Virus record (IMG/VR): IMGVR_UViG_3300046387_000246
Location: 1-64,000 of that record
Direction: 5' to 3' (one strand)
DNA: 64,000 nucleotides
Source: a virus
In this document: in pieces, positions 1 to 17,600 of the stretch
How positions within the stretch are numbered: position 1 is the stretch's first letter
Layout of the letters: every line of letters begins with the position of its first letter
Made by a program: the position numbers and the translations under genes
The notes under the pieces: model-generated
Seen by the model: only the letters and a program-made list of their open reading frames with translations
What the model was told of the DNA's origin: nothing
Database searches by the model: none

Positions 1-42
1 TGGATTCTCAACAGACAACGAAGTAAAAGGACTTAACTTCAG

Positions 43-222
43 ATGAAAAGACGTTACATTTTTGAATGCGAAATTGAAGTCAGCGATCTAGATGATATTC
101 AATGGAAGCATCTACCCGAAGAGATACAAATGTATCTAGATTCTAACTATGAGCATAATAACACATCAAATGTTATTAGGTGGAATATTAGAGATAAATT
201 CCCTTTAATTAAGGACAGTTAA
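43..222 (+). CDS. small early hypothetical protein (59 aa, MKRRYIFECEIEV...FPLIKDS)
   Basis: Manually translated ORF below the track cut-off; ATGA overlap with an upstream partial ORF; its stop lies inside the repeat element at 214. Confidence 0.7.
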   Translation: MKRRYIFECEIEVSDLDDIQWKHLPEEIQMYLDSNYEHNNTSNVIRWNIRDKFPLIKDS

Positions 223-269
223 ATATGTGTCACAATACACCTAGAATAGGGTACAAAATACCTTATAAT
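214..269 (+). promoter_or_regulatory. early promoter element copy 1: GACAGTT-N6-GTGTCAC, 30 bp, TATAAT
   Basis: GACAGTT 214-220, GTGTCAC 227-233, TATAAT 264-269; no -35 box; one of five copies with conserved spacing. Confidence 0.85.
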
Positions 270-294
270 AGTAGTATAGAAACAAAAAGACTAA

Positions 295-522
295 ATGAAA
301 CCAAATCTTTACACAATGATGTTCAATACAGTCTTATCGATAGACTTTGGAAGAACATTCTGGTTAGATGAGCAAAAAGAACTATGTTCAGCACCAACTT
401 TTACAGATGGTTCAACTGACTGGGATATGTCAGACTATGTTTGCGACTGGACAGATCTAGATGGTATAAATCTAGGTAAATTACTTAACATTCAAAAATC
501 ACTTCTTAAGGACTTCCAATAA
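295..522 (+). CDS. early hypothetical protein
   Basis: 75-aa ORF directly downstream of promoter copy 1. Confidence 0.75.
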   Translation: MKPNLYTMMFNTVLSIDFGRTFWLDEQKELCSAPTFTDGSTDWDMSDYVCDWTDLDGINLGKLLNIQKSLLKDFQ

Positions 523-818
523 TGACAAACGATACAAAACTCACAAATGACCAACTCACCGAAATGAAGGATTCATTCGTTGAGATTATGGTAGATGGGA
601 TGGACACCAAAACCTTAGCACGTTATGTTTATGACTCAATGAGTGAGTACTATGAAAAGATGAATGAACACGATTTCAAAGAAGAAATGGATAATTACGA
701 TGAATGCCTTTATGATGAGTTAATGGAAAATGCACTCATTGAAGATGAAGAAGAAAAAGAAGAACACTTCTCAGAAATTCTATTTGATAGAGAAGTTGGA
801 GGTGCTATTGATGACTAA
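522..818 (+). CDS. highly acidic early hypothetical protein
   Basis: 98 aa, very D/E rich, TAATG coupling to the previous ORF. Confidence 0.8.
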   Translation: MTNDTKLTNDQLTEMKDSFVEIMVDGMDTKTLARYVYDSMSEYYEKMNEHDFKEEMDNYDECLYDELMENALIEDEEEKEEHFSEILFDREVGGAIDD

Positions 819-1020
819 TTACAATTCACCTAGTGAGATCGGTGTTGGTGATGTTGTAAAGTACAATAACACACAATACACAGTTTTGACCAATTACATA
901 AAAGGTCAGACTGATGCAAAAGGTCATACACCTAGAGAAAACAGAACTATTTTAATTGATGCAGAAGACAATCGTACAATGTGTCAAGATTTTAACCTAT
1001 TGGAGATTATTTCACAATGA
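811..1020 (+). CDS. early hypothetical protein, possible SH3-like barrel (IGVGDVVKY...)
   Basis: Track ORF 730..1020; the start is more likely ATG 811 (GGAGG upstream), which minimises overlap. Confidence 0.65.
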   Translation: MTNYNSPSEIGVGDVVKYNNTQYTVLTNYIKGQTDAKGHTPRENRTILIDAEDNRTMCQDFNLLEIISQ

Positions 1021-1202
1021 CAACAAAAGAGAGAGATTTAACTGGTCAGCAGTATATTAACGTAATTGCTGAATTACCTGATAAAGATTTTTATCCTATT
1101 GCTGAACAGATATGGAAAGCACTTGATAGAAATAACATCAAACTTGCTCAAGATGCTGAACTTAGTATAAGAGTATATAATTTTGAAGAATATACTGAAT
1201 AA
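1017..1202 (+). CDS. early hypothetical protein
   Basis: ATGA overlap; stop TAA abuts repeat copy 2. Confidence 0.75.
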   Translation: MTTKERDLTGQQYINVIAELPDKDFYPIAEQIWKALDRNNIKLAQDAELSIRVYNFEEYTE

Positions 1203-1258
1203 GACAGTTGGATTAGTGTCACAAGAGTACTACTATTAGGGCATCCATCCATTATAAT
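1203..1258 (+). promoter_or_regulatory. early promoter element copy 2
   Basis: GACAGTT 1203-1209, GTGTCAC 1216-1222, 30-bp spacer, TATAAT 1253-1258. Confidence 0.85.
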
Positions 1259-1283
1259 AGGTATATACAAACGAATTAAGAAA

Positions 1284-1472
1284 ATGAAAAAAGGTTTAAA
1301 CATCGAAGTCACATCCACACAGTACGATTATCTTTATGATGTACTAATGGAAGCATATGCTAATGACGTAGCAGAGCAAAAAGACTGGGATGTCCAAACT
1401 TTCGATAATCTAATTGACAATGTGTGTCAAGCACAACAGACTAACCTATCCAATTCAGTAAAAGGAGCATAG
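1284..1472 (+). CDS. early hypothetical protein (acidic)
   Basis: 62-aa ORF after promoter copy 2. Confidence 0.75.
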   Translation: MKKGLNIEVTSTQYDYLYDVLMEAYANDVAEQKDWDVQTFDNLIDNVCQAQQTNLSNSVKGA

Positions 1473-1476
1473 TCTA

Positions 1477-1659
1477 ATGAGTTGCATACAAAACGAGACA
1501 ATCCTAGAAAATCTATACGATGAAGTATGGGAAGAGTATAGGATTAAAAACAATCTTACTTCAGATCAACTTGATGCTATCGATCAGAATTCTGATCTAG
1601 GTTATCTACCAGTAATTGCAGATGAAGCACAAAAACGTTTCGAGGATTTAATTCAATGA
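1477..1659 (+). CDS. early hypothetical protein (MSCIQNETILENLYDE...)
   Basis: AAGGAG RBS; 60 aa. Confidence 0.75.
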   Translation: MSCIQNETILENLYDEVWEEYRIKNNLTSDQLDAIDQNSDLGYLPVIADEAQKRFEDLIQ

Positions 1660-1985
1660 ATTTACATAATGAGGTTATTGCTGAATCACTCACAAATTTG
1701 AAAAAAGAAGGATTTGATGTTAGAGAGTCAGATCTTGATATGGTTGCTATAGCAGATGAAGCAAAAAAACGAGTTGCTCAATCACTTGCAAATTTTGATA
1801 AAAGCAATCAAATTAAACTTGATTTCTTGACAGATACCTACACACAATGGTTACTACAGGAAAATATCTATGAACGTATATGTGCATCGGATCTAAGATA
1901 TGGATCATATGATTTGAGCGATGAGCAAAATCAATGGTTAGAAACATTCATTGAGATATGGGACATTATAGCGGAGGTGGATTAA
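1656..1985 (+). CDS. early hypothetical protein; N-half paralogous to the preceding ORF
   Basis: ATGA overlap; shared NE.I.E.L and IADEA.KR motifs. Confidence 0.75.
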   Translation: MNLHNEVIAESLTNLKKEGFDVRESDLDMVAIADEAKKRVAQSLANFDKSNQIKLDFLTDTYTQWLLQENIYERICASDLRYGSYDLSDEQNQWLETFIEIWDIIAEVD

Positions 1986-2003
1986 ATGAAGTCAAGCAGT
2001 CTT

Positions 2004-2062
2004 GTGACAGTTATTTTAGTGTCACTCTTTCTCTTCCATTCGATACCAGTAACCTCTATAAT
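2004..2062 (+). promoter_or_regulatory. early promoter element copy 3 (full palindrome GTGACA-N10-TGTCAC)
   Basis: GTGACAGTT 2004-2012, GTGTCAC 2019-2025, 31-bp spacer, TATAAT 2057-2062. Confidence 0.85.
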
Positions 2063-2087
2063 ATTAGTATAAGCAACAAAGAGGTCA

Positions 2088-2252
2088 ATGGACAATTACA
2101 CCGCACTTCTCACTCTCATAGGAGACATCAATAACTCTTTCTCTCATCTAGAGGACGAGGATTCAGCAGATATATGCGATGGTGACATCAAATTGCTAGA
2201 CAAAGCAGTTAAAAGATTTAAAACTACAGTATGGGAGAATCAACTAAAATGA
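2088..2252 (+). CDS. small early hypothetical protein (54 aa, MDNYTALLTLIGDINNSF...)
   Basis: Manual ORF; GAGG RBS; TGA overlaps the ATG of the nuclease gene. Confidence 0.7.
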   Translation: MDNYTALLTLIGDINNSFSHLEDEDSADICDGDIKLLDKAVKRFKTTVWENQLK

Positions 2253-2761
2253 ACGTAATACAAATGTTTTCAGCAGAACAACGCTATCAAAAACTATTTG
2301 AACAAATGTATGAGATATGCGAAACTGAAGGATGGGGTGACCCATTCTCTTATGCAAGATCTAGAGAAATCCATATGGCAGGCGTTTTAGGTCATAGGGT
2401 TGCGGATGACTATTCTGGTGCGGATGCATATGATAAGTATGATCTACCAGTAGAATATAAGTCCACTATAGGTAAGAAACTAACAGCAACTTACAATGGA
2501 ATTTCAGTTCAAGATAGTTGGGATAAACAAGTAGAATACATTCTCAATGAAAAGATCGGAAAATACCATCATCACTATTATGCACGATATGAAGGAGGTC
2601 AGATAGTTGAAGTATGGAGACTAACAGCGAAGCAAGTCTATGATAAATTACTTCCAAATCTCAAAAGACAATTTCATTCAACTAAGGTTAAAAAAGACCC
2701 TAGACTTGGATATACTCTATCAGAAAAGTATATCTATGAAGTTGGTACACAAATCATTTAA
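2249..2761 (+). CDS. PD-(D/E)XK endonuclease, PvuII-like type II restriction enzyme fold
   Basis: Motifs align end to end with R.PvuII as I recall it: EGWGDPF~HGINDIF, GADAYD..VEYKS~GNDAVD..YELKS, IGKY..YYARYEGGQIVEVWRL~IAKY..WIFAIYRGIAIEAIYRL, EKYIYEVGTQII~VKYVMEHGTKIY. Start probably 2249 (ATGA coupling). Confidence 0.7.
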   Translation: MNVIQMFSAEQRYQKLFEQMYEICETEGWGDPFSYARSREIHMAGVLGHRVADDYSGADAYDKYDLPVEYKSTIGKKLTATYNGISVQDSWDKQVEYILNEKIGKYHHHYYARYEGGQIVEVWRLTAKQVYDKLLPNLKRQFHSTKVKKDPRLGYTLSEKYIYEVGTQII

Positions 2762-2787
2762 TTCACCCAATTCTCCAGGAACTTATT

Positions 2788-3015
2788 ATGGAAACTGACA
2801 ACACAGTCATCGAAAATGAACGTCAAATGAATATAGACGTTTTTGCTAATCACTTCTTAAAGCAATGTAAAAAGCATATTGACAACGGTATGCTAGGCGA
2901 AGCGGATGCACTTTTTAATGAATTTATCGTTGATGGCATCGATCCCGAAGATGGTGACGTTAATTTCATTTTCTTACAAGATCTTACAGACTACTATCAC
3001 GAAGAGGAGGACTAA
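2788..3015 (+). CDS. acidic early hypothetical protein
   Basis: AGGA RBS; 75 aa. Confidence 0.75.
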   Translation: METDNTVIENERQMNIDVFANHFLKQCKKHIDNGMLGEADALFNEFIVDGIDPEDGDVNFIFLQDLTDYYHEEED

Positions 3016-3180
3016 ATGAAAGTCACTTTTAAAAACACTAAAAAAGAGATCTATGATGCTATGCTACGGTATGACAATATCAAATTTCTAAAAGAAAAGG
3101 ATATTATCAAATTGAAGCAAGAGCGTAATGTACTTGTCTATATTGCTATCATACTTTTTACCTTAATGTGTCTTACATAG
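3016..3180 (+). CDS. small protein with C-terminal transmembrane helix (54 aa)
   Basis: Manual ORF, GGAGG RBS, C-term VLVYIAIILFTLMCLT; TAG abuts repeat copy 4. Confidence 0.7.
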   Translation: MKVTFKNTKKEIYDAMLRYDNIKFLKEKDIIKLKQERNVLVYIAIILFTLMCLT

Positions 3181-3236
3181 GACACTTATATTACTGTCAC
3201 ATTCAGACGTGAATACAGGTGTTCATCCCTTATAAT
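3181..3236 (+). promoter_or_regulatory. early promoter element copy 4
   Basis: GACACTT 3181-3187, CTGTCAC 3194-3200, 30-bp spacer, TATAAT 3231-3236. Confidence 0.85.
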
Positions 3237-3264
3237 AGTAATATAAGCAACAGAGGAAAAAACA

Positions 3265-3657
3265 ATGGGATTCACTAAAGTACTTGCAAAGCACTCTAAC
3301 AAGACTGTAAGGTTAGACACCTATCAGAGATTACTTTTAACCGCAATCGATTCATATGGTAATGGCAGTTGGAAAAATAACGTATCACTACATCACAAAT
3401 ATGACCAGAGAGGAGCATTTGCAAATATTCTCATCGGTGGTAATGTAGTAGGTAAAGTTGTTTACGATATTCCACAGGATGACATATCCGCAGATGACTA
3501 TAGAGCAATCCACATTGATAAAACTAAATTCTCTAAAGTATCCTATATTGCATTTGTTAAAGATGCTGACTATGATATGCAGACCATCAAATATAGAAAT
3601 CTTTTATCAAAATTCTACTTAGTCATCCTTACCGATAATAAGATGATAAAGTACTAA
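3265..3657 (+). CDS. early hypothetical protein
   Basis: 130-aa ORF, GAGG RBS, sole gene between promoter copies 4 and 5. Confidence 0.75.
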   Translation: MGFTKVLAKHSNKTVRLDTYQRLLLTAIDSYGNGSWKNNVSLHHKYDQRGAFANILIGGNVVGKVVYDIPQDDISADDYRAIHIDKTKFSKVSYIAFVKDADYDMQTIKYRNLLSKFYLVILTDNKMIKY

Positions 3658-3673
3658 GAAGTCAAGCGATCTT

Positions 3674-3731
3674 GTGCCACTTTTATTACTGGCACTCGAT
3701 CACCTGTATTCACCCATTTATCCATTATAAT
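3674..3731 (+). promoter_or_regulatory. early promoter element copy 5 (covariant palindrome GTGCCA-N10-TGGCAC)
   Basis: GTGCCACTT 3674-3682, CTGGCAC 3689-3695, 30-bp spacer, TATAAT 3726-3731. Confidence 0.85.
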
Positions 3732-3756
3732 ATTAGTATAAGCAACAAAGGACACT

Positions 3757-4071
3757 ATGAGAAAAATCGAAGCACAAATGAACAGAGCAATCAGAACTGG
3801 AGAGAACTTCACTTCATCCAATACTTCAGTTACTCACACTTCTGAAGGTGCTAACGTTTACCTACACGGAAATCACATAGCAACAGTTAAGAGAAATTCA
3901 ATCCTATTGTTCGATGGCGGTTGGCAGTCCAATACAACTAAATCAAGACTAAACGCACTTTGCTATGAATTTTCATATGGTGCTAGAGTTTTCGCTAAGA
4001 ACTTTGAGTGGTTCGTAGGTTACAAGAATTTAACTGAAGAATTCGCTAATGGATTTGAGTTAGCACTATGA
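3757..4071 (+). CDS. conserved cyanophage early protein (MRKIE..M..AI...VYLHGNHIA...GGWQSNTTKSRLNAL)
   Basis: Motif pattern recalled from marine phage hypotheticals; AAGGA RBS. Confidence 0.8.
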   Translation: MRKIEAQMNRAIRTGENFTSSNTSVTHTSEGANVYLHGNHIATVKRNSILLFDGGWQSNTTKSRLNALCYEFSYGARVFAKNFEWFVGYKNLTEEFANGFELAL

Positions 4072-4199
4072 GCAATAAAAACACCCCATTAACGGAAGAG
4101 GTCTATAAGCAACTATGCGACCCTAGTCCCATTATACAATATTACTTTCAAATAAAACCAAATGAGAAGGAGGAGGATTTGACAGGGGTAGAAAACTGA
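4068..4199 (+). CDS. small hypothetical protein (43 aa)
   Basis: Manual ORF with ATGA overlap, ending just before a terminator hairpin. Confidence 0.5.
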   Translation: MSNKNTPLTEEVYKQLCDPSPIIQYYFQIKPNEKEEDLTGVEN

Positions 4200-4207
4200 T
4201 ATATACT
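4179..4207 (+). promoter_or_regulatory. host-like sigma70 promoter TTGACA-17-TATACT
   Basis: TTGACA 4179-4184, TATACT 4202-4207, upstream of the HNH ORF. Confidence 0.75.
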
Positions 4208-4231
4208 AGAGGGTATTATATCCCTCTTTTT
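4208..4231 (+). terminator. Rho-independent terminator-like hairpin ending the early cluster
   Basis: AGAGGG-tattatat-CCCTCT followed by a T run. Confidence 0.55.
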
Positions 4232-4244
4232 ATTATATCAAATT

Positions 4245-4574
4245 ATGAACCCATTTAAAAAGATCGATGAATCGACTTACCAGGATAGCGAAGGCATCCT
4301 ATATAAACCTATTCCACAATATGAGGATTATTTCGTTTCTAACCTAGGGGAAATATATTCTACGAAGTGGGGTAAATGGAAGAAATTAAAGACTCATCTT
4401 AATGAAAACGGTTACCGAAGAGTTACTTTAAGACAACACGGTAAAACCGTAGTCCGAAGGTGTGCTAGACTTACCGCACTTGCATACCATCCCCACGGAG
4501 ATAACAATCTCAACGTCATTCATATAGATAAGGACAAAGTAAACGACAAAGCGATAAACCTAAAATGGTTATAG
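4245..4574 (+). CDS. NUMOD4 + degenerate/truncated HNH protein
   Basis: YKPIPQYEDYFVSNLGEIYS (NUMOD4), NGYRRVTL, VIHIDKDKVNDKAINLKWL; ends before the usual T..EN..H helix. Confidence 0.75.
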   Translation: MNPFKKIDESTYQDSEGILYKPIPQYEDYFVSNLGEIYSTKWGKWKKLKTHLNENGYRRVTLRQHGKTVVRRCARLTALAYHPHGDNNLNVIHIDKDKVNDKAINLKWL

Positions 4575-7630: not shown

Positions 7631-7729
7631 ATGGAACTTTTTATTATCTTTGGAGGTGCTTATGCACTCTACACAGTTGGTATGGCAATCGCTACTGAAC
7701 TAGACTATCGTGCTGCTAATAAAAAATGA
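7631..7729 (+). CDS. small membrane peptide (32 aa)
   Basis: Manual ORF MELFIIFGGAYALYTVGMAIATELDYRAANKK fills the gap exactly; ATGA coupling to the next gene. Confidence 0.55.
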   Translation: MELFIIFGGAYALYTVGMAIATELDYRAANKK

Positions 7730-8013
7730 GCGACATACCTGAGTTTGAAAACTATCAAGACGAACTAGAATGGAGATTCGTAAAGATTGCGGAATCTATT
7801 AAGTCTCTTGCTATTAAGATAAAGACTGTAGAAGGATTCTTTGGAAGAGGATCTTCAATGATCCAGTATAAGATACCTGGTAACGATGACTACAGTGATC
7901 TTGCTAGTGTGTTTGACGATCTGTATGACCGTCTAAATAAGATTGAAGAAGACATTGCTATAAATGGGAGCTTACCTGATCGAAACAGGTCGGAGTTATC
8001 AGAACCCGATTGA
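7726..8013 (+). CDS. hypothetical coiled-coil protein
   Basis: 95-aa ORF. Confidence 0.7.
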   Translation: MSDIPEFENYQDELEWRFVKIAESIKSLAIKIKTVEGFFGRGSSMIQYKIPGNDDYSDLASVFDDLYDRLNKIEEDIAINGSLPDRNRSELSEPD

Positions 8014-11000
8014 TTCACACGATTATAATCGTACCTATACTGCTGCGGATTCACCTCATATTGGTAATCTTGTAACGTCAGGTTCTGATGGAGAGATGTC
8101 AGTTGATAAGAATGCGACAGGCGGTACATATACAATTACAACTGGTGGTGGTGCTGGTTCTTATCAGTTTGGTAAGGATGAGGTCTATTATATTGGTACA
8201 CAACAAACAACACGAATAGAATACGCATACGCAGAAAGAAGAGAGATATATCGTTGGTATTCTGGTAGGAGAAACGATCATCTATACTATGATCAAGTGG
8301 ATTTGGATGATAGTTTACCTATGAATCCAAAAAGATATAATAAAGAACCACGTAACGGAAGAGAAGTCTTCCTATTGTCAAAAGATAGTCATACTGGTAA
8401 CACTCAGGTATATTTGCATTATGATGCAGCAAACTTTAATTCATATCTATCAACCAGTAGTACAGGTGCACTAAGATCATTAGGTTATATTTGGTCATCA
8501 CAGGCTGCTGCTGACACTGCACAGATTGTACATCCCTCTGAAGACCTACTACCTCTATACCACTATCGTAGAGCTAACCCTGTTGACGACCTCTATACTA
8601 CAGATCCTACTAAAGAGACGAACATACAGACAGATGTGTCAGGTGTTCCCAACTCCCCTAATCCAGGAAATCAAGAATATCAGTATCAAGGTATATACGG
8701 ATACGTGTTCTCACGTACTGCTCCACGCTATAGAAATCAATATGTTGACGTAGGTAAACCAATAAACACTGGTGAAGTGAACAGATCTAACTGGTATAGT
8801 TGGTCAGGAGGGTATAATGAGGACGCATATAACAATTCTTCGCCTCCTGCAAGCACTTTAGGTTGGGGAAATCCAGATAATGCTGAAATAAACGACTCAA
8901 AAGCGAATTTTGAGTGGTTTTATGGCAAAAATGGAGCTGTAAAGGCGTGTTTACCCAAATTTTTGGGTTTTCACGATGCTTTTGAGGGTCAATTCGTCTA
9001 TTATCTGTATGATACGACATTTCCGTTCTCAGGACCGATATATGGTATTAATTTAATTACAACTGATGCTCCTTGTAACCCATCAACTGCTGATTGCCCT
9101 CACGATCCACATACATTATACCATTCTTACTACTATGAGATGCGTCAAGACGCTTGGGAGACCAAAAAGACGCATATTTCAGTAGATACACCAGGTCAAG
9201 ATGGTTTATCCGAATCATTTTGGGCTGTGGGTACTGATGATCAGATGGTATTCTTTAGATACACTACAGAGACTGGTTTCTTCGTACCTGGTGAACAAGT
9301 AAATGGGTGGTTAATACAGTCAGTGCGTTACTTTGGTGATGAACTGCGTTGTGGTTTTATGAGATTGCAGACTATAGCAGGTGCAAAAGGTAATGTATTC
9401 ACTTATCAACAAACATTTACCTCTACAAACAGTGGAACTGCTTCAATATTGGCAGGTTACGGTATTCCTGATAAAGCAGCATTCTTCGGTGTGTATGAAT
9501 TTCCTAAGAAATTGTCCTATTATAAAGCAGAAATCGATAATGATGCACTAATACCACAAAGAAACTTCGATGAAGCAATTTTACAAGCGTATGTAAGTGA
9601 AAAAGGGGAGATTGAAGAGATAGAAATTATCAATGCAGGTAAAGATTACAAAGATCCTGACATTATTATCTCTATTCCAGACATTAGAAGAGTGGAAGGG
9701 TTCACTGATACTGCTACAAACATCCCAGAAATGTTTGTTGATGGTATTTCTGGTGAACCTCAGCTCAATTTTCAGACTACAGAAGACTTTGAGCAATCAA
9801 ATAAGGCAGGTAGGGAGACAGTTACACATCTTGAAAAGCAAAAATGGGAGACAGATGCAGGTTATACTAAAAGTGTAAAGCAAGCAAAGGCATCTATCAT
9901 ATTAAATGAAGAAGGATGTATCAAAAGTGTAACCATATTGGAACCTGGTGCGGGTTATCAACCAGGTGAAGAGGTTGGTGTGCGTGTTGTAGAGCGTGAT
10001 AAAGAGACTAGAGAAGACACATTCGTTGGAGAAGACACCAAAAATGTCCAAGCGGAGTTAGATAATTCATTTGATAGTGACGATACACCGAAGGAAGTAA
10101 GAGATGCATTAAAAGATCCAATGCGTATTATGAAGGAAGGATTATCTTCCATTGATACAACTATATCAACAGACTATGTAACTGGGTATATTGGTGTAGC
10201 AGATCTTGAAAAAGATGAAAAAACTAAGTTCTGTGACAAGATTCCTTCAGAGTGCTTATCACCTGACCTAGGAAAGAACTGGTATAGACTTGGAAATATC
10301 ATAAATCCAGACACATATGTCGGAGGAATCGCTTCTTCACCAAATTCCACTCCAATAGCAAATGAATTGACTAAGTTTTTAAGTCCATCTGTAAGTAATA
10401 ATGTTGCACATTCAAACTATTTGGAAGAAAAGACCTCAAATGGTCTGCCAGGTATGTTTGGTGGTGCTTGTTTAGAGACATTCCAAGCAAAACTATACGG
10501 AGTGAAAAGATTTTTTGATGTACCTTGCCCTATGACTGGATATGATCAATACGGAAAGTACAAAACTTTTGGATTTATCCCATACAAGTATTGCGGAAGT
10601 AAACAAGAAAGTGCACAGGTACGTGTTTCTATTAGTGTAGAGGGTGATGTATCTAAAAAAGGAGAGACAGTTAATCAAGCGTTCCTTGATTGGTTGGAAT
10701 CTCTACCTAAACCTACACTGACTAGACCAAGACCTGTTATGGATGGTAATACTGATAAAACAACCAAGTCACACGCTTGTAATCGTGGTGGTGATGTGAA
10801 TGGTCGTTGCTTTGCTACAGGTAATGGTACATATAGTTTTGTTCCTGAAGCAGGTGATGAGAATACATTTGACTTTGTAGGAACAGAACTAGAGAAGTTA
10901 GCTACGTGGGTAGGTCCTGGCAACTATAACAGTTACGGAACTGGTACAGTGGAGATTACAGACACGATGTTAACGCCACCTAATGACACGTATTCGCACA

Positions 11001-12165: not shown

Positions 12166-12573
12166 ATGGCGTATCGGTTTAACGCAGAAAGAAATTTATC
12201 ACGTCAATTCCGTGACCTCAGTATAGGGATGAAAGCAAACCCCAATACTGAGGATTTTTCTATTGTAAAGAATCAGAATGCTATTAAGCAAGCGATGAAA
12301 AACCTTATCCTGACAGGATTTGGTGAGAGACCATTTCAACCAACTAAAGGATCTCGTTTACGTCAGATGCTTTTTGAACCTTTTGATGTGTTTATGTCAG
12401 AAGAACTTAAAGAAGAGATGTTTAACGTATTAAAGACTTTTGAACCTCGCATCGTGGTTAATGAAATAAGAATGATACCTGGTGAACCAAATGAACTAGA
12501 AGTGGAAGTTGATTACACCATTGTAGGAGAGACCCTCATACAAACTGTTGATTTCTTATTGGAGAAAGTATAA
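12166..12573 (+). CDS. gp25: baseplate wedge/sheath initiator gp25
   Basis: AIKQAMKNLILT..GERPFQP..GS.L..LFE, FEPRI; CTAAATA late promoter at 12132. Confidence 0.92.
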   Translation: MAYRFNAERNLSRQFRDLSIGMKANPNTEDFSIVKNQNAIKQAMKNLILTGFGERPFQPTKGSRLRQMLFEPFDVFMSEELKEEMFNVLKTFEPRIVVNEIRMIPGEPNELEVEVDYTIVGETLIQTVDFLLEKV

Positions 12574-14666
12574 TGGCAGCAATTCCATCCAATTTAACCT
12601 CGTTAGATTTTACAGAGATCAGAGAATCTATTCGATCATATCTAAGAACAAGAGATGAGTTCACAGATTATGATTTTGACGGTTCTGCTGCATCATATCT
12701 TTTAGATGTTTTATCATATAACACTTATTATGCTTCATTCACCGCTAATATGGCGATGAACGAGGCTTTTCTCGAATCTGCGACTATTAGAGATAACGTT
12801 GTTAAAATTGCAAAACAATTAAACTATACACCACGTTCTGTAAAAGCACCAAAAGGATGTGTGCGATTTGCAGTACAAACTACTGTAATTGGTAATAGCA
12901 CAGACTATCCTAGTAGTGTAACTATGATTGCAGGTGATGTATTTGTTTCTACAACTGCTGGACAGGGATATACATTCACATTGCCAGAGAATTTAGTTGC
13001 TACTGTTGATCAAGCAACTGGAATCGCAACATTTACACAAGTTGTGATCTATCAAGGTAATACATTAGAGTATGAGTACGTTGTAGAGGACGTTAAGAAG
13101 AGAACATATCTAGTTCCATCAGATGCTATTGATACTGACCTATTAAAGGTCTCTATTGCACCTAACGCACAGTCTGAAGAGATTGACACATATAACTTAG
13201 TAGAAAATATTGTTGATGTTGATGGAACTACTCGTGGTTACTTCCTTGAAGAGACTGATGACCAAAGATACAACGTAGTTTTTGGTGATGGAGTTATCTG
13301 TCGTCAGTTAATTGCAGGTGAGGTTATTAAACTTAAGTATGTGAAGACTGAAGGAACTGCTGCTAACGGATGTAAGAGATTTAGCTTCATTGGACGCATT
13401 CAAGATTCAACTGGTCGCTTTGTTGCTACATCAAATGTATCATTAGTGACCATTGACGGTGCACAAGACGGTGAGGACTTAGAATCTACCCTATCGATTA
13501 AATTCAACGCTCCTAGGGCGTTTAACAGTCAAAACAGGGCAGTTACCGAATCAGACTATGAATACATTACCAAAAAAGTCTATCCTCAAGCAAAAGCAGT
13601 AACTGCTTACGGTGGGGAACGCTTACAACCTCCTGTTTATGGAAAGGTATACATTTCAATTAGGACTAAATCAGGTGCTTTACTTAATACCACAACTAAA
13701 AAAAGAATCAGGACAGATTTACAAAAATATTCCATCGCTGCGATTGAACCAGTTATCGTTGACCCAATTACCCTCTTTATCAGACCTAAAACTTGGGCAT
13801 TCTTTGACGGTAATAAGACTACACTATCAAATAATGAAATTGCGTCTAAAGTTCTTGGAGCTATCGATCAGTACAATTCTCAAGCAGAATCAACTCGATT
13901 TAATGGTCGTATTGATATCTCTGCTTACCAAACGATGATCGATTCATCAGATCCTGCAATTAGTGGTAATGTCACTCATATGACATTGGGTATGAACGTT
14001 GCTGGATTTAACTTTGGTCAAACATTTACTCAATGTATTGACTTTGGTAATGAAATCGCTAACCCTAACGATCTTTCAGGAGCAGACAAAGGGGGAAGTG
14101 GTACTGGCACAGATAACGGAGGTACTTGCACACCTAAGTATTCAAGTGTTAAGAGTGGTACATTCTATGCAACTGGTTATACCGAGAGTCTTCTCGCATT
14201 AACTGGAAGCACAAATGGCAATCAGATATCTTCTGCTTCTCTAATAGAGAATGACACTTCTGCATTCCTTCCAGTGAATATTCGTGATGATGGTTACGGA
14301 ACTCTAATTTTGGTTACAAAGGTTGACGAAACAGAGACTGTACTGAAAAAGAATGTAGGAACTGTAGATTATAAGAATGGACAGGTATGTTTAGGACCTA
14401 TCGATGTAGCAAGTACACCTGATGGAACTAATAGAATCCCTGTTACCGTGATACCTGCATCTAGTAACATAGACGTAGGTCCTGGCTTAGATCCAGCAAT
14501 CTTTAACCCAACTGTTCAGTCGATTGATTACACGATTGATACAACAAATGCTAAAACATTTGACCCATTTGACTTTACTCCTATCAACTTCGATGGTAGT
14601 TCTATAAATATCATTGATTATCCAACCACTGTATACGAAGTACCAGAATTTAATTCTTGCTTCTAG
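12573..14666 (+). CDS. gp6: baseplate wedge subunit gp6
   Basis: LDF..I..S...YL....EFTDYDF.GS, LLD.L.YNTYY, NE.FL.SA..R, QNRAVT..DY. Confidence 0.92.
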   Translation: MAAIPSNLTSLDFTEIRESIRSYLRTRDEFTDYDFDGSAASYLLDVLSYNTYYASFTANMAMNEAFLESATIRDNVVKIAKQLNYTPRSVKAPKGCVRFAVQTTVIGNSTDYPSSVTMIAGDVFVSTTAGQGYTFTLPENLVATVDQATGIATFTQVVIYQGNTLEYEYVVEDVKKRTYLVPSDAIDTDLLKVSIAPNAQSEEIDTYNLVENIVDVDGTTRGYFLEETDDQRYNVVFGDGVICRQLIAGEVIKLKYVKTEGTAANGCKRFSFIGRIQDSTGRFVATSNVSLVTIDGAQDGEDLESTLSIKFNAPRAFNSQNRAVTESDYEYITKKVYPQAKAVTAYGGERLQPPVYGKVYISIRTKSGALLNTTTKKRIRTDLQKYSIAAIEPVIVDPITLFIRPKTWAFFDGNKTTLSNNEIASKVLGAIDQYNSQAESTRFNGRIDISAYQTMIDSSDPAISGNVTHMTLGMNVAGFNFGQTFTQCIDFGNEIANPNDLSGADKGGSGTGTDNGGTCTPKYSSVKSGTFYATGYTESLLALTGSTNGNQISSASLIENDTSAFLPVNIRDDGYGTLILVTKVDETETVLKKNVGTVDYKNGQVCLGPIDVASTPDGTNRIPVTVIPASSNIDVGPGLDPAIFNPTVQSIDYTIDTTNAKTFDPFDFTPINFDGSSINIIDYPTTVYEVPEFNSCF
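14603..14610 (+). promoter_or_regulatory. T4-type late promoter TATAAATA
   Basis: Exact consensus about 70 bp upstream of the giant gene. Confidence 0.7.
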
Positions 14667-14682
14667 TCTCTAAAAACATAAG

Positions 14683-17600
14683 ATGAAGGCTATTACAATA
14701 TCAGATAGGTTGCAGGATCAAATTCCTGCATTCATTAAAGAAGATAACGACCAGTTTGTCAATCTTTTAACGCAATATTATAAATCTCAAGAGAAATCGG
14801 GTCGTCCGTACGATGTTTTAAGTAACATACTGAGATATACAGATATTGGTTCGGGAGAATTTGACCCAAATTTCCTTTCTTCTACCTCTGCTGTACTAGA
14901 AAGAGTAGATCCGACACAAAAAACTATAATTGCAGAAAACGTAAATTACTTCCTCGAAAATGATGGTACAATTAAGATCGATGAAGAAGTCATTTACTAT
15001 GACAAAATTACACACTCTCCTGACATTGTTTTCACGCCTGGTGTTGACAAAGCCGAATTCGATAGAAAAATCCAAGAATTCGAACCAATTTCTGATCAAT
15101 TTGATGGTTCAACAACGCTATTTCCTTTAAGGTTACTTGGAAAACCTGTAACTCCTCAAAGTTCACAACATCTTCTTGTTATTGTAAATAACGAGTTTAA
15201 ATATCCAGATGTAGACTATTTCCTTGAAGGAGATAAGATACGTCTTGTAAACCCCCCAGAAACCCCTACAGGACTGCTTACAGGTGCTATCAATACAGTT
15301 CGTTACCTAATTGGTTACACAAGCATTCCTGTACGTTCTCTGGACACCATTACTGTTGCTAATGATGCTAAAGAATTTGAATTAAAGTTAGACGGATCAA
15401 GTTATACTCCATTATCTACTGTATCTTCTATAGTTGTTGTTAATAGAGTAGAAAAACGTCCATATGAAGATTTTACAATATTTGAAAATAAATTAATCTT
15501 TAAAGAGGATATTGGTGAAAATTCTGTTATCGCTATTCGTTCAATTGAACTTATTGCACCTGAATTTGGTGGTGGTGCGAGTGCAGTTGCTCAAATTGAA
15601 GATGAGAAGTTAAAATCAGTTATTGTTAAGGAAGGTGGTAGTGGATATCGTTTAAGTTTCGCTCCTAAGATTAGTGTTGCGTCAACTAAGGGTACTGGGT
15701 TTGGTGCTACTGCTGAAGCACTTGTTAATGGTATTAAAGAGACTCAATTACTATTTGCAGGACAAGGTTACGCTTCAAACAATCCTCCAGTTGTTATTGT
15801 TGACTCACCTGCTGACCCTGAAGGTAAAACTGCTCAAATCCGTGCAGTTGTTGATGATTCCATCGAAGGGGTCTCACAACTCATTGTAGACAGTTCAGGA
15901 AGTGGTTACGATAGGATCCCATCGATCAAATTCCAGAATCCTGGTGGTGCAACCATTAGTAACCCAACGTTAACTAACGGTGTGATCGATCCTGATTCAA
16001 TTACTGTCACAGATGATGGTTCAGGATATACTACTGCACCTCTTGTGTATTTGGATCTTCCAACAGGTGACAATGCCATAAGAGCTAACGTTGTTGCAAC
16101 AATTGATGCATTCGGGCGTGTTAATGGCATTACAGTCGTTTCAGGAGGACAAGGTTACACCAGTGTTCCTAGAGCACGTATTATTGATCCTGTAGGTGCA
16201 CAAATACTTGATGTCAATGTAACTGCGGGTAGAGTTACTAATATTGAACTATTAACTGGTGGTGCAGGTTACACAGACGCTCCATCGGTGTATATCGTTG
16301 ATAATAGGAAGGATATTACTGGTGCACCAGCTGGTGGTACTGGAGCAACTGCTGTTGCAACCATATTCAACGGAGAGATTACTGATATCAATATAACCAG
16401 TTTTGGAAATGGATACTCAGAAACAGAACCTCCTCAAGTTTTTATTGCTGCTCCACCTGCACCTGAAGCGTCTTGTGACGTTGGTTTTGGTGAAATTACT
16501 GGATTTACGATCCATAGTGCAGGTTCTGGATATCAACCATCTGCATTTGTTAACTGTAAGCGTGGTGTTTCTAGCACATCTTCATTTGATCAGAAAGGAA
16601 ACCAAGTATACAGTACAGAAGCATCTACAATTCAATCTTCACACGAGATTGGAGGAGTCATTCACAACCTAGATACACTCTTTGCTAAGGAATTATACAG
16701 AAGGTACGTAAATCAATATCTACCAAATGCGGAAATTGACTATGAAAAAGTAAATGCTCCGCAGATCATTAAAACTATTTCGGATTTTTACGCATCTAAG
16801 GGTACAAAGATCTCAACACAGTACCTATTCAAGATGCTGTTCTCTGAGAATGTGGATGTATCTTATCCAAAAGATGAGGTTATTAAACCATCTGCTGCAT
16901 CTTGGAACGTAGATACAGTCCTCCGTGCTGAACTTATAGAAGGTGATCCTATTGATTTACTTGATTCACAGTTAATTCAGTATGTGGATGACGTAGATAA
17001 CTCTGTTAAGGGTGCATCTGCACTGATTGAGAACGTTATTGCTATCAATACTGGTGTAGGAACTGTATATGAACTTGCTATATCTGAGGAAACACTACAG
17101 GGTTCATTCACTATACCCTACAAAACAACTCTTGTAGAATCACTTAACACTACAGAATCAATCATTACTGTTGACTCTACGATTGGTTGGCCAGAAAGAA
17201 ACGGAACTATCCGTATTAATGATACTGAGCAAGTACAATATAAGGAAAAGACACTTAACCAGTTCATTGAGTGTACACGTTCTAAGAATGGTGTTGTTGA
17301 AGATTGGGATGCGGGAACTGTAATTCACTCTGATATATTTGTATATTGCAATCGTGGAACCAATACTGAGATTAAATTGCGTGTTTTAGGTATTGCTGAT
17401 GCAAAATCTACCGTATTGACTGATACTGGTTCGTACTACTTACCTGGTGATAAATTAAACGTTGCATCTCTAGGTTCTACTGCTACAGATCAGCGTATCA
17501 CTTCTTGGTTGTATAACGTTAAGAAACTGATAAACGTTACTGATATTGTACCTGGCGGACTTAATAACCAGACTGCAACCGTAACTTGCTCTAATAAGCA

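Follow-up and report, generated by a model that had tools for sequence, protein, structure and literature searches.

A PvuII-fold nuclease without its usual adenine methylase in a CATG-free cyanophage: a candidate restriction enzyme made harmless by the absence of its site

A Type II restriction enzyme whose methylase is missing is held to kill its carrier. What, then, does such a nuclease do in a phage genome that seems to lack the matching methylase, and what keeps it from cutting that genome? The question is raised by the first 64,000 nucleotides of the viral record IMGVR_UViG_3300046387_000246 (hereafter the window), near whose start lies a gene for a PvuII-like endonuclease. The original prediction, made from the letters of the window, took this gene for a solitary restriction enzyme that is used early against host or competitor DNA and is harmless to the phage because its genome lacks the cleavage site, and it connected the gene with a depletion of both CATG and CCGG. 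The comparative pattern described below fits a nuclease that, without a methylase, is harmless by site absence, and it points to CATG as the missing site, not to CCGG. On balance we think it probable that the gene encodes a CATG-specific Type IIP nuclease whose adenine methylase has been lost, and which is harmless to a CATG-free genome while cutting CATG-bearing DNA of the host or of rivals.

The nuclease gene is intact (product P0001) and is the second gene in a four-gene cassette (Table 1), its start overlapping the stop of the preceding open reading frame (ORF) in an ATGA at 2249-2252. The promoter-like element that heads the cassette matches its pattern exactly, with no match expected in shuffled sequence. 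The same module of palindrome and TATAAT is repeated near 214, 1203, 3181 and 3674, one per start of a small-gene cassette, and the copy at 3181-3262 also matches several places in two other loci (L003 and L004). In two marine studies, contigs from RNA libraries span positions 2090-2284 and 2331-2971 at 99% or more, although transcription, strand and timing are not readable from contigs of this kind. The nuclease would be expressed from this cassette within an early-gene region, presumably early in infection.

Table 1. Features around the nuclease gene and at gp6, in window coordinates.
Feature	Position	Strand	Remarks
Promoter-like element	2004..2062	+	palindrome GTGACA-N10-TGTCAC with TATAAT about 31 nt on; heads the nuclease cassette
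54-aa ORF, no assigned function	2088..2252	+	stop overlaps nuclease start
PvuII-fold PD-(D/E)XK endonuclease (170 aa), phrog_35715	2249..2761	+	homologues, model, motifs
Catalytic segment	2423..2461	+	D59 at 2423-2425, E69 at 2453-2455, K71 at 2459-2461
Putative base-reading strand T81-Q88, TYNGISVQ	2489..2512	+	in the place of PvuII STHHH
Two small cassette ORFs	2788..3180	+	2788-3015, 75 aa; 3016-3180, 54 aa
Terminator-like hairpin	3168..3185	+	ends the cassette; consensus scan alone
gp6	12573..14666
ORF of 8,566 aa	14683..40383	+	right after gp6, in the position of the giant gp7-like cyanomyovirus baseplate gene

The whole contig measures 75.5 kb, or about 42% of the genome of a T4-like cyanomyovirus, and the nuclease lies 2.2 kb from its end. 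Judged by gp6, no cultured phage is closer than Prochlorococcus phage P-RSM6, whose identity is only 56%, and a megablast search of positions 1500-4500 against cultured phages gave no match. P-RSM6 has a similar giant ORF after its own gp6. In many samples the assembly breaks off shortly after the nuclease cassette, on its downstream side (about 3300-4500 in the window) and 7-9 kb before gp6, with L083, L109, L112, L134, L142, L160 and other contigs ending in this region, which suggests a hypervariable or repeat-bounded island.

The PvuII fold proposed for this protein was borne out by structure prediction. In a fold search with an AlphaFold2 model of the nuclease (pLDDT 92.2, pTM 0.85), the 11 best PDB matches were all R.PvuII (TM 0.54-0.71, E about 1e-6, 18-21% identity), and the next ones, the methyl-dependent PvuII-like enzymes NhoI and Eco15I and then DpnI, were far weaker (TM 0.3-0.5). 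The catalytic D...E.K motif described originally is indeed intact and conserved: across 44 homologues no substitution is seen at D59, E69 or S72, K71 is kept in at least 90%, and D59, E69 and K71 are likewise conserved in 10 divergent homologues. The active site of PvuII consists of D58, E68 and K70, a spacing equal to the D-x9-E-x-K of the nuclease.

PDB sequence searches, both with the protein and with a 44-row profile, gave no significant match. The nuclease itself has no match in Pfam, where the gathering cut-off of the PvuII family PF09225 (Endonuc-PvuII, 25 bits) was not reached; the homologue in phage P-TIM68 scores 18.5 bits, and 14 of the 44 sampled homologues match the family weakly (best E 5.7e-6). 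Searching the contig with PF09225 gave no match, and control genomes were equally silent, which leaves that search uninformative. One further homologue, P0084, aligns weakly but co-linearly with PvuII in HMMER (E 0.22; residues 12-152 against 16-147). The link to PvuII thus runs through the fold search and the weak alignment of this one homologue, and the nuclease family, which belongs to a phrog with no annotated function, is a remote sister of PF09225 and not a Pfam member.

Homodimer prediction gave an ipSAE of 0.73 against 0.02 for the best control, a value to be read as likeness and not as proof, since PvuII dimers have already been solved and the prediction may reflect those structures. 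The pLDDT of the partner was at least 86 and the runs shared at least 98% of their contacts; of the proteins with solved structures, 20 of 30 homomers and 1 of 23 monomers attained the ipSAE mark. The predicted interface is symmetric and is formed by the N-terminal helices (residues 8-51) together with residues 116-118. These models present the nuclease as a true structural relative of R.PvuII, and it would act as a homodimeric, Type IIP-like restriction endonuclease.

Where PvuII has its STHHH and NNPK segments, the nuclease reads TYNGISVQ and KDPR, and both replacements are invariant within the family of 44 homologues; in the longer STHHH-aligned stretch TATYNGISVQ, T81-V87 is the invariant run. 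The alignment with PvuII suggests a putative role of TYNGISVQ in recognition. CAGCTG has 6 copies in the window, one of them at 16328, and 9 in the contig as a whole, which encodes no cognate methylase for it. With CAGCTG present and the reading segments replaced, the nuclease is therefore, on this indirect evidence, probably not a PvuII isoschizomer, in support of the earlier expectation of a different specificity. Three other words were tried as its site and ruled out: AGCT, with 76 copies in the contig, GATATC, with 29, and GCGC, which is present in L026-L028.

Homologues of the nuclease fall into more than 900 clusters in marine metagenomes. A scan of 185,579 prokaryote genomes returned no more than two matches, on short contigs of marine MAGs (3.3 kb at 46% identity and 2.3 kb at 45%) that are probably binned phage fragments, and at the sensitivity of that scan it found no bacterial home for the family.

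In most of the roughly 150 related viral nuclease loci that we examined, an ORF of about 185 aa starts between -24 and +37 nt from the nuclease stop, often with stop and start overlapping. This ORF carries an invariant NPPF motif and belongs to phrog_799 ('DNA methyltransferase'), and the best fold matches of its model (pLDDT 72) are the catalytic domains of M.TaqI, TrmM, PacII and M.BseCI, all of them N6-adenine methylases. Among the cultured cyanophages in 50,697 phage records, the small methylase is found only in P-SSM2, P-SSM5 and P-TIM68, which are exactly the carriers of the nuclease; in P-SSM2 it sits 7 kb upstream. At two loci the methylase slot holds something else, a 539-aa NPPY protein (L045) or an overlapping PF01555 methylase (L267), and other methylases may thus fill the place of the partner in CATG-bearing DNA. 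Given the pairing in most related loci, the nuclease family would by default be the R gene of a restriction-modification (R-M) pair, and most carriers would hold a two-gene module of nuclease followed by small adenine methylase.

This defining companion, a cognate methylase encoded with the nuclease, is present in most relatives and absent from the examined DNA of this phage. The two small ORFs after the nuclease, in the slot where sister phages have the partner methylase, gave no methylase match, and neither the window nor the whole contig contains a PF01555, PF02086, PF00145 or small phrog_799-type methylase, as had been said of the window. An exact-word scan of metagenome contigs (the same word had no match among viral contigs) turned up VMHT01151873.1 (L083), which is 99.9% identical over window positions 1-3330 and extends 10.8 kb further upstream, bringing the portion of the phage examined to about 86 kb of an estimated 180 kb. 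In this extension, at 8806-9729 of L083, lies a 307-aa PF01555 methylase that is 73% identical to gp049 of P-TIM68; it lies on the upstream side, at a distance of 1.1 kb from window base 1 and of 3.35 kb from the nuclease, so that the statement of no methylase holds for the window and the contig and ends there.

Is this upstream enzyme the missing partner? Many cyanophages without the nuclease carry its type at 60-80% identity (P-SSM4, P-HM1, P-RSM4, P-SSM7, S-SSM4 and others), and this type was not found in three complete or near-complete (94-100%) nuclease genomes, G001-G003. It is common to many Prochlorococcus and Synechococcus myoviruses, in which it is annotated variously as dam or as a cytosine methyltransferase. 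From this distribution it is probably a common orphan type and not the partner of the nuclease. The small partner-type methylase is lacking from the 75.5 kb and from the 10.8 kb of L083, and was not found in 99 kb of a close relative (G036). The description of the nuclease as solitary is thus right in that no small methylase is present in the examined DNA, and is otherwise partly an effect of the window edge, in a family whose members are mostly paired.

G001, G002 and G003 each have one distant PF02086 Dam-type gene. With tblastn, the method that had detected methylases in other loci, neither G001 nor G002 gave a match to any of the three methylase types. The dN/dS of the nuclease in the methylase-less clade is 0.05-0.19, values that point to strong purifying selection on the gene in that clade.

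The contig is free of CATG (251 copies expected), CCGG (31) and GCGC (28). When the methylase-less nuclease loci were pooled with this contig, the complete genome G001 and 185 kb of G002, the resulting 862 kb of nuclease-bearing DNA without the small methylase contained no CATG, against about 3,246 expected, while 410 kb of DNA with both genes contained 776. Among words of 4 to 6 letters, only those containing CATG separated the two sets, apart from the generally rare CCGG. The complete genome G001 (181,945 bp, with terminal repeats) has no CATG where 645 are expected. In G002 (L189, 187 kb) all 12 copies fall at 185063-187347, where the final 2.4 kb show a normal density; this stretch is probably the end of a chimeric contig, or else DNA imported very recently.

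Counted by locus, 45 have the methylase and CATG, 31 have neither, 5 have the methylase without CATG, and none has CATG without the methylase. The 80 closest relatives by gp6 are all CATG-free. Every CATG-free record that reaches the syntenic position carries the nuclease, and the 26 CATG-free records without a nuclease match all stop short of that position and are uninformative on its absence. CCGG and GACGTC are absent from every methylase-less nuclease genome and are purged even in loci that bear the methylase, whereas CATG is tolerated there; the methylase therefore relieves avoidance of CATG only. CATG has the adenine that an NPPF enzyme needs; CCGG has none. The site of the module would most likely be CATG, or a site that always contains CATG.

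Comparison with phages lacking the gene separates the depleted words from one another. The earlier idea that the loss of CCGG is tied to the nuclease failed here, CCGG being just as completely lost in nuclease-free cyanophages. Equal depletion in relatives without the gene, a pattern that would indicate host restriction, is found for CCGG and GCGC; it is not found for CATG in the nuclease-free P-RSM6, which has 673 copies against 858 expected.

The tallies require caution in how they are counted. There are just 2 changes of methylase state across the nuclease tree, and the seemingly perfect table of methylase and CATG shrinks for this reason to 1-2 independent contrasts, too few pairs for a phylogenetically independent test to reach significance. 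Nuclease-free cyanomyoviruses also purge other 4-mers equally well, namely CCGG in all of them, GCGC and CGCG in P-RSM6, and GGCC in S-CAM7, and S-CAM7 is in addition depleted 5-fold in CATG (136 copies against 744 expected). Since phages without the nuclease show such purges, host restriction alone could have removed CATG; it may have made the purge first, with loss of the methylase following.

Some divergent homologues (41-55% identity) lie in CATG-rich DNA with no methylase within about 10 kb (L273/L274/L276, L275/L272 and L270). Reading motifs are altered in the first two of these groups. In L270 they are nearly canonical, with YNA for YNG, and this locus is a possible counter-example to the CATG reading. 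These homologues may have other specificities or distant methylases. P-SSM2-like contigs (L242, L250-L257, L070 and L073) also contain CATG and no methylase, on flanks of less than 5 kb upstream that are too short to judge, given the 7 kb at which P-SSM2 has its methylase.

How, then, would the enzyme work in this phage? With the methylase gone from its lineage and no CATG left, its own DNA would offer the nuclease nothing to cut, and CATG-bearing DNA in the infected cell would be open to attack: the host chromosome, yielding nucleotides and host shut-off, or alternatively the DNA of co-infecting phages. In our view the probable targets of the nuclease are the CATG sites of host or rival DNA, while the phage genome is spared. 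The CATG purge may have come before the loss of the methylase or after it. That this is a phage which, with a Type II enzyme and no modification enzyme, defines self by having erased CATG from about 180 kb, and whose own nuclease keeps CATG out, is a bolder proposition that we hold as tentative and rather doubtful.

The most substantial rival is that host restriction removed CATG, as it would have removed CCGG and GCGC, while the nuclease recognizes another site that is protected by a methylase or generally purged (CCGG or GACGTC); the protector would be the upstream PF01555 enzyme in this phage and the Dam-type enzyme in G001-G003. It draws on the complete purges of other 4-mers and the low CATG count of S-CAM7 in phages without the nuclease, and on the placement of PF01555 genes (upstream in L083, immediately upstream in P-TIM68, L022 and L029, and no more than 2-8 kb away at some 12 other loci), together with the single Dam-type gene of each of G001-G003 and the methylase-less L270 and L273 group in CATG-rich, CCGG-free DNA. 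Yet the PF01555 type occurs in many phages without the nuclease and is missing from G001-G003, the tightly linked partner is an adenine methylase by its NPPF motif and M.TaqI-like fold where CCGG offers no adenine, and CCGG and GACGTC stay purged despite the methylase while CATG is tolerated. We judge this rival unlikely.

Two other readings change what kind of enzyme the nuclease is. It would be very improbable, in our estimate, that it is no restriction enzyme at all but a mobile homing-type or a recombination or repair nuclease that has kept the PvuII fold: its place in a variable cassette region where the assemblies of several samples break would suit such an element, and PD-(D/E)XK homing endonucleases and resolvases do appear among the distant fold matches, but the best full-length match is a Type IIP enzyme, the predicted dimer is symmetric, methylases are its constant companions, and in the CATG-free clade it keeps a fixed syntenic position upstream of gp25/gp6. 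We hold it to be very improbable that the nuclease is a methylation-dependent PvuII-like enzyme that cuts modified host DNA and spares unmodified phage DNA. Enzymes of this sort require no partner methylase, and NhoI, Eco15I and DpnI come next after PvuII in the fold search; they do so, however, at TM 0.3-0.5 against 0.65-0.70, below all PvuII chains, and the coupled amino-methylase of most relatives would turn the phage's own DNA into a target, with the association of CATG and methylase left unexplained.

The enzyme shares with R.PvuII (Proteus vulgaris; Type IIP, CAG^CTG, PF09225; PDB 1pvi, 2pvi and 1f0o) the full-length fold (TM 0.65-0.70), the D-x9-E-x-K motif at near-identical residue numbers and the small size, and by prediction it would also dimerize through its N-terminal helices. 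It differs in having only about 20% identity, in the replaced STHHH and NNPK segments, and in a genome where CAGCTG stands unprotected. It also has neither the N4-cytosine partner of the M.PvuII type nor a controller gene, and the small N6-adenine methylase that takes the partner's place in relatives is absent here. The chlorovirus PBCV-1 encodes R.CviAII and M.CviAII, which act on C^ATG and make Cm6ATG, and early degradation of host DNA is the function ascribed to them. This pair resembles what we propose in being a virus-encoded Type II nuclease with an adenine methylase and the site CATG, and differs in that self-protection is by methylation, not by absence of the site, and that the host is a eukaryotic alga. 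DenA and DenB of T4 (endonucleases II and IV) likewise destroy host DNA while the phage genome is exempt, through hydroxymethylcytosine; their folds are different, and they rely on a modified base in place of the total lack of a 4-bp word proposed here.

Site avoidance is classically read as escape from host enzymes. Avoidance of restriction sites in phage genomes was reportedly described by Sharp in 1986 and by Rocha et al. in 2001. The present phage resembles these classical cases in that the genome of a virulent phage has lost short palindromes altogether, and departs from them in that the avoided word tracks the phage's own methylase beside its own nuclease. A literature search on PvuII or on CATG avoidance in cyanophages found nothing relevant. 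If the proposal is true, nature would offer an exception to the lethality rule, a methylase-less enzyme conserved and under selection throughout a clade of abundant marine viruses, its mechanism of self-protection would be readable from the sequence alone, and, on the bolder proposition above, absence of the site would be a third way to exempt phage DNA from a host-destroying nuclease, beside base modification and methylation. Part of the word avoidance of cyanophages might then be linked to the phages' own genes and not to host defences alone. Comparative genomics would further predict the specificities of both enzymes, CATG for the nuclease and Cm6ATG for the methylase. Cyanomyoviruses have no denA, denB or ndd, and it has been suggested that they degrade host DNA by a route not yet described (PMC2984593). 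The nuclease is a candidate for such a route, or for the exclusion of rivals, in the subset of T4-like cyanophages that carry it.

Several smaller observations accompany these results. The divergent sub-family represented by L273 has its nuclease (7671-10803 for the segment) between a 776-aa phrog_459 'peptidase' gene, whose stop overlaps the nuclease start, and a small ORF that is ligase-like; the neighbourhood contains no methylase. Beside CATG, CCGG and GCGC, this contig also lacks CTGCAG, ACTAGT and GACGTC; in G001 and G002, GATATC, AGTACT, GTATAC and TACGTA are absent or nearly so and CTGCAG is common, so that the set of purged palindromes differs lineage by lineage. Two loci with both nuclease and methylase, L081 and L067, are almost free of GATC (2 copies in 15 kb and 2 in 5 kb, respectively), a separate purge of their sub-lineage.
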